Of a stretch of 46,097 nucleotides of DNA, positions 26,981 to 31,929 are shown in pieces. Source of the DNA: a bacterium (GTDB lineage Bacteria > Patescibacteriota > Minisyncoccia > Phycocordibacterales > CAIZLB01); the NCBI GenBank assembly GCA_037127815.1, contig JBAXXP010000005.1:1-46097 (forward strand). Reading direction: 5' to 3'. The notes beneath the pieces are model-generated. The model worked only from the letters and a program-made list of their open reading frames with translations, had not been told where the DNA came from and made no database searches. The number at the start of each line of letters is the position of its first letter. Positions within the stretch are counted from its first letter, which is position 1. Both the position numbers and the translations under genes were made by a program.

Positions 26981-27475
26981 TCAATCGAGGACATCTACTT
27001 TTTTAATTTCAACGCCTCTTTCTGTGAGATTAAAGTTGCCATCATACCAGACGTCGGCAATCAATTTTTCTCCTTTAAGAATACGAGGAATCCAGTGCAT
27101 ATCAGAATCCATAAATTGTTCCTTTGGTGGTAGTTCATCAACTGAAAACCATGTCGGTTCAATCATTTCACCTGAATCAGTCGGTATATCAATAATGTTG
27201 TTTACAATAAATACATGGGCTTTAAAAAGAAAGCTGTCGCCATTATGAAATTCAATATAAGCCACCTTTTCCACATCGCTCTTGCAAATTGATGCGCCTC
27301 CACTTTCTTCTCCAAATTCCCTGACTGCGCAATCGGCAAGGTCTTGGTCCGTCTCTGAATCAAAACCTCCACCGTAGCCATTCCACAGCCCAATTCCAAG
27401 AACTCGAGTCTTTTTTGCCAAAAGAACCATTCCGTCCTTGATTACAAAAACAATTGTACCAGTTCGTTCTTTCAT
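26981..27475 (-). CDS. NUDIX hydrolase, MTH1/8-oxo-dGTPase-like
   Basis: GLWNGYGGG...CAVREFGEESG, EMIEPTWF, FMDSDMHW. Confidence 0.88.
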   Translation of the reverse strand: MKERTGTIVFVIKDGMVLLAKKTRVLGIGLWNGYGGGFDSETDQDLADCAVREFGEESGGASICKSDVEKVAYIEFHNGDSFLFKAHVFIVNNIIDIPTDSGEMIEPTWFSVDELPPKEQFMDSDMHWIPRILKGEKLIADVWYDGNFNLTERGVEIKKVDVLD

Positions 27476-27528
27476 ACTATGGAAATGGTAGCATGAATTG
27501 AAATTATTAAATATGGGTACAAATGAAC

Positions 27529-27553
27529 CCCCGAACCGCTCTGCGGTTCGGGG
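27529..27553. terminator. Perfect 11-bp hairpin, probable terminator
   Basis: CCCCGAACCGC-TCT-GCGGTTCGGGG. Confidence 0.65.
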
Positions 27554-27577
27554 GATTTATATATTTGTACCTCCTTG

Positions 27578-28009
27578 TTAACGTTTAAGCTTCTTAAAGG
27601 CCCTTCTTTTTTTCGAAAGTAAACCATGAGTTCTTTCAAACCTGAATCCGTAGTCGAGCTGACCAACTATCTCTTCTAGCGTGCTTTCAGGTTTGGACAC
27701 TACACATGGAATAATACCGCATCCCTCTTTCTCGTGACTAATTGATTGTTTAAAGTGACCAATAAGTCCACGTACAGAACTCTTCACTTGGAATCGTACC
27801 CAACCGATTACCTTGTGTCGAATCCAAAGATCTACACCACAATGATCTTCATTATCATCTGATTCACAGCACTCCTCATACCACCAAGGTTTCAGTGTTT
27901 CGAGTGCATATATCACCTTAAGCTCATTAAAACGTCCAAGTTTTTTTGAGCTCAATCTTCTCCTGACTTCAGCAGGAGCAATATCTCTGAATGGATCAAT
28001 CGTTTTCAT
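27578..28009 (-). CDS. Hypothetical protein, PD-(D/E)XK nuclease-like
   Basis: ED..GVDLWI...FQVKSS motif. Confidence 0.6.
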   Translation of the reverse strand: MKTIDPFRDIAPAEVRRRLSSKKLGRFNELKVIYALETLKPWWYEECCESDDNEDHCGVDLWIRHKVIGWVRFQVKSSVRGLIGHFKQSISHEKEGCGIIPCVVSKPESTLEEIVGQLDYGFRFERTHGLLSKKRRAFKKLKR

Positions 28010-28047
28010 AACTCCATTGGCTATACTATACTATTTTAAACTAAACG

Positions 28048-28073
28048 CAAAACCGCCACTGCTGACGGTTTTG
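28048..28073 (-). terminator. trpB terminator
   Basis: CAAAACCG-CCACTGCTGA-CGGTTTTG. Confidence 0.6.
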
Positions 28074-28113
28074 ATAATTTTTTCGATTTTAAATTACTGG
28101 CTATAAAATAAAT

Positions 28114-29319
28114 CTATATCTCCAATATTTTAGCAACATAATCTATATCCTTATCTCCTCGGCCAGAAATATTAACAACCATAATCTCATCCTTACTCAA
28201 TGCTGGAGCAAGCTTTATTACATGAGCTACTGCATGAGCGCTTTCAAGGGCTGGAATAATTCCTTCAACCTTAGATAGCTCAAGAAAGGCCCTGAGAGAT
28301 TCATCATCAGAGGCTCCAACATAATCTACTCTTCCTATACTTTTTAAATATGCATGAATCGGCCCAACTCCAGGATAATCTAATCCAGATGCAATTGAAT
28401 GAACCGGCGACGGTTCCCCTTTTTCATCTTGTAAAACAATCGTTTTCATTCCGTGTATTACACCAGTCGTGCCATGTGTAATAGTCGCAGCATGTTCACC
28501 AACCTTATCACTTTTTCCAGCAGGCTCTACTCCAATTAGCTTAACTGTATCATCAAGAAATTCATGAAATAAACCAATCGCATTTGATCCCCCTCCAACA
28601 CATCCAATAATATAATCCGGCAATCTTTTTTCTTGCTCCATTATTTGTTCTCTAACTTCCCTACCAACAATTGATTGAAAATCTCTAACAATCATTGGAT
28701 ATGGATGGGGTCCGACCACTGATCCAATAGCAAAAAAAGTAGTTTTATATTCATTCATGAACTTGATAAAAGCACTGTCCACTGCATCTTTAAGACATTT
28801 TCCACCAGAAGTGACCTCAACAATTTTAGCACCTAATAATTTCATTCTTATAACATTAGGGTGTTCTTTTTCTATATCAATTGAACCCATATGAATTTCA
28901 CATTCAAGACCAAGAAGTACCGCAGCTGTTGCAAGAGCAACTCCATGTTGCCCAGCTCCAGTCTCTGCTAATAATTTTTTCTTACCCATTCTTTTGGCCA
29001 GTAGAGCTTCTCCAATACAGTGATTTATCTTATGTGCACCCGTATGATTTAGGTCCTCACGTTTAAGATATATTTTTGCTCCACCAAGTTTTTCAGTTAA
29101 ATTTTTTGCATAATACAAAGGCGATGGTCTTCCAACATAGTTCTTTAGTAAATCTAGATATTCCTTCTGAAATACTGGATCATTTTTTGCAATTAAATAT
29201 TCCCTTTCTATTTCCTTCAACACCTCAGCCAATTGAGGAGGTACAAAACTTCCTCCAAACTCTCCATAATACCCATCTATATCCGGTAAATTTTTTAACG
29301 ATTTTATTTCTTTGTTCAT
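28114..29319 (-). CDS. trpB: Tryptophan synthase beta chain, stand-alone
   Basis: [14 protein letters not shown] (PLP Lys), [40 protein letters not shown]. Confidence 0.97.
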
Positions 29320-29420
29320 ATAATTTTATTTATTTAATAACTAACTAACAGCAGACGTTTAGTAGTTACGCCAAAATTCAGTACAATGATTTTTAAAAAT
29401 AAATTTAGTCATATAGATAA

Positions 29421-29528
29421 AACAAAAACTCCCACAATCTGTGGGAGTTTTTGTTATTTAAGGAGATAATTATAAATACAACAAAAGCTACCCACTAATG
29501 TGAGTTGCCCACCAAGTTGTATTTATAA
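29421..29528 (-). promoter_or_regulatory. Trp transcriptional attenuator (anti-antiterminator, antiterminator, terminator)
   Basis: 13-bp 1:2 stem (29516-28 with 29470-82); 2:3 pairing of 29473-95 with 29441-60; 16-bp terminator 29421-55 with T tract. Confidence 0.9.
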
Positions 29529-29547
29529 TATTTATATTTCTTAACAC
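29488..29547 (-). CDS. trpL: Trp operon leader peptide (M/V)LRNINIINTTWWATHISG
   Basis: GTG-start 19-codon ORF with tandem TGG TGG at 29514-29509, overlapping the attenuator stems. Confidence 0.88.
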   Translation of the reverse strand: MLRNINIINTTWWATHISG

Positions 29548-29553
29548 GATGAG

Positions 29554-29582
29554 ATTATAGGGTATATATGAATTGAAGGCAA
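29554..29582 (-). promoter_or_regulatory. Sigma70 promoter of the trp leader
   Basis: TTGCCT-N17-TATAAT, 6 nt upstream of the GTG. Confidence 0.8.
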
Positions 29583-29609
29583 GGAACATGTTACAAATGG
29601 AATTAAATA

Positions 29610-30515
29610 TCACTCTGACCCAACAACAAACCAAGCTTCATTTGATTCACTGTGCTGTAGATCAAGATGATTTATAAAAAGTCCTTTCCTGAAATCAACT
29701 GTACAAATCGCATTTACCCCAGATCCACAATACGATATTTCGGGGAATTCAGTATCTATGGGTGTTGTCGTTGAAGGAATTGTACCAGATTCGTTCTCAT
29801 ATACTGATGGAATAATTGCCAACCACCCGTTTTGTTTTAGAACATCTCTTGCGTGATAATAGCTATCTCTAAGCTTATAAGTAAAACTGTCATCTAATAT
29901 ATTTCTAACGTAAGACAGAACCTCCACCTTGCTCTTATTTTTTATTTGGAAGGTATATAAATTACCATTATAAATAAATTCTAAAGTAGGCGTAGTGCGA
30001 GAGCTTTCATTAAAATAATAAGCATCCAAATTTTCATTTATCTTTATTTTTTCCCATCCAAATCCTCCAATATCCTTTGCAGTATTTTTCTTCCCCTCAA
30101 AATACGCCACGGTGCAGAATTCAGCACCATTGCAATTACCATTTTCTGGTACTAAAGTTGAGACATTAACCCTATATCCAACATCTTCAGTTACAGTATA
30201 TTCAGCTTGGATTTTTTCTCCATTTACTGCAAAATCGATTTTCTGAGGTAATAATATAGGTATTTTTATTCCAGAATTCAACATATCAGCATTAATTTTT
30301 GTAAAATTAAATGTACTAGTAGAATTTCCGTTTGTATTTTCTTCTTGTTGGTAAATAACTTTTATACCCTTATTAGCAAGTACAGTTTCTGGATTGATGA
30401 CTGTATTCTCATTTATAATATCTTCTGTAATTTTTCTACTATTTCCCAAAAATAAATATAGACTAACCACTAATAAAAATACCACTAATGCGATTAATAA
30501 AATCCCTTTTTTCAT
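29610..30515 (-). CDS. Hypothetical N-terminally anchored surface protein
   Basis: MKKGILLIALVVFLLVVSLYLFL then soluble domain with Cys pairs. Confidence 0.8.
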   Translation of the reverse strand: MKKGILLIALVVFLLVVSLYLFLGNSRKITEDIINENTVINPETVLANKGIKVIYQQEENTNGNSTSTFNFTKINADMLNSGIKIPILLPQKIDFAVNGEKIQAEYTVTEDVGYRVNVSTLVPENGNCNGAEFCTVAYFEGKKNTAKDIGGFGWEKIKINENLDAYYFNESSRTTPTLEFIYNGNLYTFQIKNKSKVEVLSYVRNILDDSFTYKLRDSYYHARDVLKQNGWLAIIPSVYENESGTIPSTTTPIDTEFPEISYCGSGVNAICTVDFRKGLFINHLDLQHSESNEAWFVVGSE

Positions 30516-30683
30516 ATGTACATTATATCAAAGTATCAACATGTTCACTAAATAATAAATTTTAATAAATTACTTTTTACAATCGTCCTATTTTAAAAAT
30601 TGTGACCCCAAAACATGGCTTTCCGAACTGCTAGCCCTTCGGTCGAGCATCATAAACCTCAGAAAAGAATTATTATCTTATAC

Positions 30684-31706
30684 TTAATTCAATGCTGAAA
30701 TTATCGTCTGTATTTGATTGTAGTAAGTATCGTTTAGTTTATTTACACCTTGATACGAATAACTGAAGCTAAGAGTCTGATTATTTAATATTTGTGTAAT
30801 AAATATTTCATCTGTGTTTTGCAAGACATCTCCCGCTTGGGTCGTTATTAGAAATCCATTAATCCTACCAATCTGATATGGCTTATAAGATATTGTTAGA
30901 GGCAACGCACCTTGTTCTATTGACTGCTTCGCTGAAATAATATCTTTTGCTTTTTGTTCAAGCGATGTGTTTAAGTCGTCAACAGCGATTGAAAGATACC
31001 TCTGACCTTGGTCATTATAAGCAAAAATTATTTTTTGTGGTGTTGAATTACCATTATCAGAAAATGTCGATGGATATTTAAACGAAAATCCCCTACCAGA
31101 GTCATAGGTTTTCCATCCAACAGTTTTACTAGCTGTAGTATTTAACCCAGGAGATGTTGAGTTTATTACACTGACACTTATGTTTTCTATGGTTTTCGCG
31201 CCAGTGCTATCTCTCGCTGTAATTATTATATTAAAATCACCAAATTTTGAATAAGCGTGATAAAATGGCGGATACAATTCTCCAAATTCATACTCTGCAG
31301 TGCCATCACCCCAATTTACAGAATAAGTTAAAGTACTACCCTCACCTTTGTCATTTGGACTAAAAGCATTGACCGTCCACGTACCTTTTTGATTCAAATC
31401 CAATTCCTTTGGTCCATTTACTTTTATCTCCGGAACTTTACATTTTATACTACCCATCGAACCGTTGTTCGTACATGGTTCTGTGGTATCAGATGTTGGC
31501 GTATTTTGAGTATTGATCACCTCCTTTTTGGTCTCTTGTTTAGCTTGAGCTGTTGTCTGAACTTCTGTATTTGTACGAGAGCTGTCAGGTAATATTGGGG
31601 CTTCAGCTTTCTTATTGGTATAAATATAAACACCACCGCCTACTACCAACAAAGCAATAATAGTCAAAAGCACTGGCACAAGGAATCCCTTTTGTATGTT
31701 CTTCAT
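30684..31706 (-). CDS. Surface protein with class III (prepilin-like) signal, PKD-like domain and PsbP-like C-terminus
   Basis: QKG/FLVPVLLTIIALL (lacks E5); YSVNWGDG...HAYSK.GDF PKD motif; GWKTYDSGRGFSFKYP. Confidence 0.8.
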   Translation of the reverse strand: MKNIQKGFLVPVLLTIIALLVVGGGVYIYTNKKAEAPILPDSSRTNTEVQTTAQAKQETKKEVINTQNTPTSDTTEPCTNNGSMGSIKCKVPEIKVNGPKELDLNQKGTWTVNAFSPNDKGEGSTLTYSVNWGDGTAEYEFGELYPPFYHAYSKFGDFNIIITARDSTGAKTIENISVSVINSTSPGLNTTASKTVGWKTYDSGRGFSFKYPSTFSDNGNSTPQKIIFAYNDQGQRYLSIAVDDLNTSLEQKAKDIISAKQSIEQGALPLTISYKPYQIGRINGFLITTQAGDVLQNTDEIFITQILNNQTLSFSYSYQGVNKLNDTYYNQIQTIISALN

Positions 31707-31857: not shown

Positions 31858-31929
31858 TGACCCTACCGGGAATCGAACCCGGATTTAAGCCTTGAGAAGG
31901 CTTCGTCCTAACCGTTAGACGATAGGGCC
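31858..31929 (-). tRNA. tRNA-Glu (anticodon CTC), CCA not encoded
   Basis: GGCCCTA/TAGGGTC acceptor stem, AAGCC-TTCTCAA-GGCTT anticodon arm, GGTTCGATTCC T loop. Confidence 0.97.

Follow-up and report, generated by a model that had tools for sequence, protein, structure and literature searches.

The tryptophan synthase beta gene trpB occupies positions 28114..29319 on the minus strand of the window, by which we mean the whole 46,097-nucleotide stretch of DNA that was analyzed. Upstream of it, between positions 29582 and 29421 of the same strand, lie a sigma-70-like promoter, a short open reading frame (ORF) with two adjacent tryptophan codons (WW), a set of alternative hairpins and a terminator with a U tract. 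The trpB assignment is based on a full-length match to TIGR00263 (572 bits, cut-off 392) and on the presence of a PALP domain; the gene is not preceded by a Shine-Dalgarno (SD) sequence. It is followed by a predicted terminator of its own (28048..28073, minus strand), and the unit is therefore monocistronic, with trpB as the regulated gene. No conserved promoter was found between the upstream terminator and trpB; this interval contains instead a second conserved upstream ORF, hereafter uORF2. On the far side of the promoter, a minus-strand ORF without a Pfam match (29610-30515) ends at position 29610.

The host genome of 842 kb (35.9% GC) is represented by a 95.6%-complete assembly, in which no TrpA (PF00290), TrpR (PF01371) or Rho (TIGR00767) was detected, while trpS is present. 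Because no TrpR was found, the attenuator described below is the only recognizable Trp-responsive control in this genome. The lack of trpA suggests that TrpB probably makes tryptophan from scavenged indole and serine, a salvage role deduced from the known TrpB reaction. The gene appears to reside in a variable region, since orthologs of the 143-aa gene adjoining trpB (27578-28009) are flanked by different cargo in genomes of the same genus. In L192 and L193 this cargo is a 214-aa membrane protein or a 495-aa oxidoreductase-like protein (compare window positions 26981-27475 and 27578-28009), and genome G002 is devoid of the NUDIX gene. The variable region is located near a tRNA gene at 31858-31929. 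An exact empty site was not found in the same-genus genomes, whose DNA is too diverged and shares only the neighboring gene, and trpB itself is absent from the 60 nearest genomes of the same genus, family and order.

The promoter consists of a -35 box TTGCCT (29577..29582) and a -10 box TATAAT (29554..29559) on the minus strand, separated by a 17-nt spacer. With 10 of 12 matching positions, it is the top promoter-like match within 27000-31000. Six nucleotides (CTCATC) separate the -10 box from a GTG codon at 29547, which opens a 19-codon ORF ending with TAG (29488..29547, minus strand; (M)LRNINIINTTWWATHISG*). This presumably leaderless leader ORF contains a tandem TGG TGG at codons 12-13 (29509..29514), a putative sensing site whose columns are invariant in both alignments of related loci. 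The preliminary description of this DNA had reported the promoter and the WW ORF with the same coordinates and sequences.

Downstream of the promoter, the leader RNA can adopt three alternative pairings. The 1:2 structure (29469..29529), which is predicted to act as a pause structure and anti-antiterminator, had been described as a 13-bp stem; it actually consists of a 14-bp outer stem, formed by 29529-29516 with 29482-29469, that encloses a 10-bp inner hairpin at 29510-29485. The antiterminator 2:3 (29441..29495) pairs a 5' arm at 29495-29478 (GUGGGUAGCUUUUGUUGU) with a 3' arm at 29457-29441 (ACAAAAACUCCCAC). The previously proposed antiterminator of about 20 nt thus exists as a pairing, although not as a continuous helix, being made of 16 pairs with internal loops. 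The intrinsic terminator 3:4 (29417..29455) matches the earlier account, with a 16-bp stem at 29455-29421 followed by a U-rich tail. The mutual exclusivity of the three pairings, also proposed before, is borne out by the folds, by covariation among relatives and by RNAalifold. When unconstrained, the leader folds into the 1:2 hairpin plus the terminator at -47.6 kcal/mol (z = -6.9; none of 200 shuffles was as good), and the helices taken singly have energies of -24.2 (1:2), -11.5 to -15.5 (2:3) and -22.3 kcal/mol (3:4).

The position of the ribosome would select among these structures, as judged by folds in which the bases under the ribosome were forced to be single-stranded. With a Trp codon in the ribosomal A site, segment 1 is masked and GUGGGUAG... 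is freed for pairing with segment 3, so that the window RNA made up to segment 3 folds as the antiterminator. The UAG stop codon sits inside GUGGGUAG in segment 2, and a ribosome located there masks the antiterminator arm and lets the terminator form. This geometry agrees with the earlier proposal, modeled on E. coli trpL, that a ribosome at WW covers segment 1 and a ribosome at the stop covers the antiterminator arm. The folds covered 17 loci. Placing the ribosome at the stop gives the terminator in every one of them, and moving it to the Trp codons gives the antiterminator instead in 13. L027 combines a new pairing with a terminator stem that is shortened but persists; in the other three (the window, L029 and L026), whose terminators are the strongest, the terminator stays intact despite the ribosome on the Trp codons. 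The equilibrium fold of the window with a stalled ribosome thus still retains the terminator, and since the terminator is far more stable than the antiterminator, read-through must be kinetically controlled, as in E. coli. In E. coli trpL the 3:4 hairpin is likewise more stable than 2:3.

A search for WW leaders upstream of trpB homologs from the candidate phyla radiation (CPR), one of the checks proposed with the preliminary description, detected the attenuator layout in 19 core loci and in about nine more distant ones. The relatives belong to a trpB clade with 72-86% identity, mostly labeled as Paceibacterota/Nomurabacteria, with a few members labeled as Saccharibacteria, Doudnabacteria, Legionella or Pseudomonadales. 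The tree groups the CPR trpB genes in one clade of 23 rows (support 99/90), whose sister is a small clade from Actinobacteria. The shared layout begins with a TTGnnn box and a TATAAT-like box, set apart by 17 nt whose sequence varies. A start codon follows 6 nt after the latter box (7-8 nt in a few loci) and opens a homologous 19-codon ORF with W at codons 12-13 that ends in ..AWWTAHISG*; then come the 1:2 structure, a short CCCAC/GUGGG terminator and a U tract. The core stem and the U tract were seen in all related loci, and both core and distant loci keep the Trp codons and the stop codon inside segment 2. The unit is kept upstream of trpB although the genes farther upstream differ among the loci.

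The alternative structures themselves are supported by conserved pairing and covariation in the 19 core sequences. In the terminated structure, 77.9% of cells are paired compared with 35-50% for slid partners, and pairs that change on both sides number 14, a count not attained in any of 500 shuffles (7.1 +/- 1.7). For the antiterminator the corresponding figures are 68.7% of cells paired and 41-55% for slid controls. RNAalifold recovers the 1:2 and 3:4 helices from the 19 sequences unaided. In L022, ACUCAC/GUGGGU/CCCAC/GUGGG is replaced by ACUCGU/GCGGGU/CCCGU/ACGGG, i.e. four segments change together and three pairings are kept; L106 has a compensatory change within the terminator, and the Doudnabacteria locus L029 retains the three helices with unrelated sequence. 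Much of the pairing shows no variation, since identity within the core alignment is 78%, and the covariation comes from a few lineages. A covariance model of the leader scores 124.8 bits in its own genome, where the next match has 31 bits; it gave no match upstream of non-CPR trpB genes and none in an even sample of 120 further genomes from the class of the host.

Several related loci deviate from the common pattern. Two contigs with a CPR-type trpB and leader carry proteobacterial labels ('Legionella sp.' MAG L030, which also has uORF2, and 'Pseudomonadales' MAG L028), which reflects either mis-binning or gene transfer. In L027 and L030 the promoter spacer contains GTACTAGTAC and the leader has a single Trp codon. 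Seven further cassettes (L017, L019, L024, L031, L101, L104 and L107) include a TrpR-family gene (PF01371, 59 bits in L019); in these TrpR-type loci, palindromes containing ACTAGT overlap a leaderless promoter (TAGCAT-N6-ATG), the leader is of another WW or W type, and uORF2 is missing.

Taken together, these data lead us to interpret the element as a classical ribosome-mediated transcription attenuator of the trpL type that controls a stand-alone trpB, with a probability of roughly 80%. The tryptophan reading put forward in the preliminary description is supported by the identity of the downstream gene and by the conservation of the layout in relatives. In the proposed mechanism we infer the transcription start, the translation of the leader and the dependence on tryptophan from the arrangement of the elements. 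Transcription would begin at or beside the G of the GTG codon, and the 19-codon leader peptide would be read from a leaderless mRNA. When charged tRNA-Trp is scarce, the ribosome would stall at the tandem UGG codons and cover segment 1; the emerging segment 3 would then pair with segment 2, no terminator would form, and the polymerase would read through uORF2 into trpB. When tryptophan is plentiful, the ribosome would proceed to the UAG inside segment 2, or would have left so that the 1:2 structure forms; segment 3 would pair with segment 4, and transcription would end at the U tract.

The second upstream ORF, uORF2 (29359..29412, minus strand; MTKFIFKNHCTEFWRNY*), was not included in the preliminary description. 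Its ATG at 29412 lies nine bases past the terminator stem, and its single Trp codon is at 29373-29371. The peptide is conserved in 25 loci with the consensus M-x-[KH]-[FY]-I-F-K-x-H-C-T-E-[FT]-W-R. At codons 7 and 9-15, pairwise differences amount to 576 synonymous and 183 nonsynonymous changes, an excess indicating that purifying selection acts on the peptide. In contrast, the part past W-R is free to vary, with an immediate stop, a stop a few codons on, continuation across the following hairpin, overlap with trpB at ATGA, an in-frame fusion to trpB, or an out-of-frame run past the trpB start; what matters in uORF2 therefore occurs at or before the UGG-CGN codons. In L015 and L026, uORF2 continues in frame into trpB without a stop codon, and read-through would extend TrpB at the N-terminus; such in-frame joins are about as frequent among 26 loci as expected by chance.

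In most loci a small hairpin starts from the GGCG of the Trp-Arg codons, and in many relatives it is stronger and often followed by U5. Its arms covary among loci (CGU AAU..ACGC, CGC AAA..UUGUGC, CGA CAAAA..UUUUGUCG). The window version (GGCGU...ACGUC, 29354..29372, minus strand) has -3.9 kcal/mol, is no better than shuffles and is not followed by a U tract; the hairpins at the end of uORF2 are weak overall (mean z -1.36), and RNAalifold gave no consensus structure between uORF2 and trpB. A second intrinsic terminator after uORF2 was rejected on these grounds. We also discarded a pairing between the 5' portion of uORF2 and the initiation region of trpB, which was present in one minimum free energy fold only, was absent from the centroid and was lost in distant loci.

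Our best guess from the sequence is that uORF2 most likely adds a further translation-dependent layer of control at its Trp-Arg codons, helped by the nascent chain. A more specific version of this idea is possible, though doubtful: the M-x-K-F-I-F-K-x-H-C-T-E-F-W-R peptide may be an undescribed regulatory nascent peptide on which the ribosome dwells at UGG-CGN, either amplifying the Trp-tRNA signal or sensing a second one such as free tryptophan or indole, which together with the WW attenuator would provide a two-stage control of indole salvage in a Rho-less and SD-less CPR bacterium. If so, the peptide could represent a new sensory nascent chain. It is unlikely that uORF2 is the main sensor, with the nascent ..HCTEFW-R stalling the ribosome and deciding trpB expression while the WW leader serves mainly to fix the basal level of termination or to supply a small RNA or peptide that acts in trans. 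The selection on the peptide, the freedom of the sequence after W-R and the hairpin at UGG-CGN with U5 in many relatives would all fit such a role, and attenuator-derived small RNAs and peptides with roles in trans are known, e.g. rnTrpL/peTrpL in Sinorhizobium (PMC6614838, PMC7298713). On the other hand, the window hairpin has neither stability above shuffles nor a U tract, a TnaC-like mechanism would need Rho, which the genome lacks, and none of the classical parts is missing from the WW attenuator, which also covaries. Moreover, L028, L114, L116 and the TrpR-type loci have a WW leader without uORF2.

The leaderless start of the WW leader, as originally suggested, is supported indirectly, by the conserved promoter geometry and by genome-wide patterns of initiation. 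The distance from the -10 box to the start codon is fixed at 6 nt (7-8 in a few) across about 25 related loci, while the gap sequences vary (CTCATC, AAAAAT, CAAAAT, CAGTAT, ACAAAC, AAAAGC, GAATAT, GCGTTT and others). Genome-wide, TATAAT is found 6, 7, 8 and 9 nt before the first ATG of long ORFs in 35, 24, 17 and 22 cases, respectively, compared with about 1-4 at other distances. When genes with a -10-like box 6-9 nt before ATG are regarded as leaderless-looking, they account for 177 of the 614 long ORFs (~29%) in the host genome. The motifs GGAG, GAGG and AGGA are not enriched at any distance before start codons genome-wide. From the -10 peak and the lack of SD enrichment, the organism seems to be devoid of SD-dependent initiation and to use leaderless mRNAs routinely; it appears to rely on leaderless and A-rich SD-independent initiation. 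A leaderless leader peptide would therefore represent the normal mode of this host. The trpS gene (C2:65491) is itself leaderless-looking (TAAACT-N6-ATG); no Trp leader peptide was found in its upstream region, so the attenuator is carried by trpB only.

The start codon of the leader deserves separate consideration. Of the ATGs that follow a -10 box, 42% begin a long ORF, compared with 15% of the GTGs, the latter value being close to background. Leaderless-looking genes are almost all ATG-started, and the GTG of the window may initiate poorly. The leader ORFs of relatives start mostly with ATG; three loci use GTG, and in one (L011:2756) the homologous ORF has ATA at this position behind an intact TATAAT-N6. 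The low incidence of GTG as a leaderless start and the ATA at the start position of L011 would be accommodated by a real switch with a leadered transcript, i.e. with transcription starting further upstream or translation starting at another codon by SD-independent internal initiation. Leadered genes of this SD-less genome, trpB and uORF2 included, must in any case initiate without SD. We consider this version improbable, more so than uORF2 as the main sensor, since the -35 and -10 boxes and the gap are fixed among the loci while the spacer and gap sequences vary, the 6-nt gap equals the modal distance of the leaderless-looking genes genome-wide, and no alternative conserved promoter was seen upstream.

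There is very little chance that the hairpin and U tract simply terminate the upstream gene (29610-30515) or a small RNA, with the promoter and WW ORF coincidental and trpB expressed from its own unregulated promoter: promoter-like matches in the region are no more numerous than in shuffles and, in this AT-rich genome, short WW ORFs behind a loose TAnnnT box are not rare by chance (7 of 1356), but the whole unit is kept upstream of trpB next to differing upstream genes, its Trp codons are invariant, its alternative helices covary, and a conserved uORF rather than a conserved promoter separates its terminator from trpB. Because WW ORFs arise by chance after loose -10 boxes, the reality of the attenuator is established by its conservation, not by the lone sequence. 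The only other WW ORF behind a perfect TATAAT (contig C6:9175) was rejected as an out-of-frame artifact inside a real gene. This gene (C6:9171-9467) looks leaderless (TATAAT-CAT-ATG) and encodes a 98-aa protein; the GTG-started WW ORF within it merely imitates a leader peptide, which is a warning against scans by pattern alone.

To our knowledge, hardly anything is known of how CPR bacteria, which cannot be grown alone, regulate their genes. The conserved attenuator implies that transcription and translation in these cells are coupled tightly enough for ribosome-mediated control, even on a leaderless mRNA and in the absence of Rho and SD sequences, and that CPR cells monitor the charging of their own Trp-tRNA. 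It also implies that the lone trpB is a regulated and useful gene, probably involved in scavenging indole from hosts or neighbors, which bears on the dependence of these organisms on their partners. The promoter, leader, uORF2 and trpB together form a small self-contained cassette and thus a testable handle on CPR regulation.

Among the known systems, the enterobacterial trpL leader shares with the window a short ORF carrying Trp codons in tandem, three hairpins (1:2, 2:3 and 3:4) that exclude one another, and an intrinsic terminator upstream of a Trp biosynthesis gene, as well as a stop codon placed so that the terminating ribosome blocks the antiterminator, and an antiterminator weaker than the terminator with kinetic control. 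In contrast to trpL, the window leader is apparently leaderless and has no SD sequence, controls a single trpB instead of trpEDCBA, and is followed by a conserved uORF behind the terminator. The conserved extra uORF2 is a feature that no known trp leader has. The likeness does not extend to homology in sequence or structure: the Rfam Trp_leader family (RF00513) gave no match in the window at E <= 10, and its best score among relatives (L099) is 25.9 bits against a gathering score of 41. At gathering scores, the Rfam matches were to tRNAs only, and none were to a leader, T-box or riboswitch family.

The best Rfam match of both the window and the genome is Bacteroid-trp (RF01692; Weinberg et al. 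2010, PMC2864571), which aligns at the leader over the full model length with 34.6 bits (E ~0.01), below the gathering score of 49. The two leaders have in common the AT-richness, the ...N-T-x-W-W peptide and an AAAUACA/UGUAUUU hairpin. Homology was rejected, as the match is sub-threshold and the likeness is specific to the window sequence; the related loci give no match to RF01692, and the likeness is therefore probably convergent. For uORF2, the closest analogy is with TnaC and other arrest peptides, which are also short upstream ORFs with conserved amino acids including a Trp residue and with a Trp-related gene downstream. There is no sequence similarity to TnaC and no conserved stop or Pro position, the C-terminus of uORF2 is free, and the logic of TnaC is opposite to that expected for a biosynthetic gene. 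A TnaC-like blocking of Rho at uORF2 is also unlikely because the genome has no Rho.

A similar regulatory principle is found in Actinobacteria, where classical trp attenuators (PMC1262725) and leaderless polycysteine uORF (Cys) attenuators of mycobacteria (bioRxiv 10.1101/834739) were reported, and where Streptomyces lividans has two leaderless Trp leader peptides, TrpL1 MFAHSTRNWWWTAHPAAH before trpE and TrpL2 MMTRTCTQLWRAA before trpS (PMC8079986). In the leaderless attenuators of S. lividans (TrpL1), C. glutamicum and mycobacteria, the peptide begins at the 5' end of the transcript, and TrpL1 resembles the window leader in its tandem Trp codons and in the hairpin and U stretch upstream of a monocistronic Trp gene (PMC8079986). 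TrpL1 shares W-W-T-A-H with the window leader, and TrpL2 (..TCTQLWR) shares C-T-x-x-W-R with uORF2. Homology to the actinobacterial leaders is not supported, since the sister trpB loci of Actinobacteria have no WW leader upstream and the pattern C-T-Q-L-W-R has 3 matches in 401 actinobacterial genomes compared with 14 for the reversed control; a kinship of uORF2 with TrpL2 was accordingly dismissed. The window leader differs from the actinobacterial ones by belonging to another phylum and by being AT-rich rather than GC-rich. The preliminary description had regarded such a leader as not described, which holds for this phylum but not in general: a search of full-text literature revealed no paper on transcription attenuation in Patescibacteria, and none that links trpB and indole to CPR, whereas Actinobacteria have leaderless Trp leaders (PMC8079986). 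The leaderless Trp leader peptide is new for the phylum and as a variant, and its principle has already been described in Actinobacteria.
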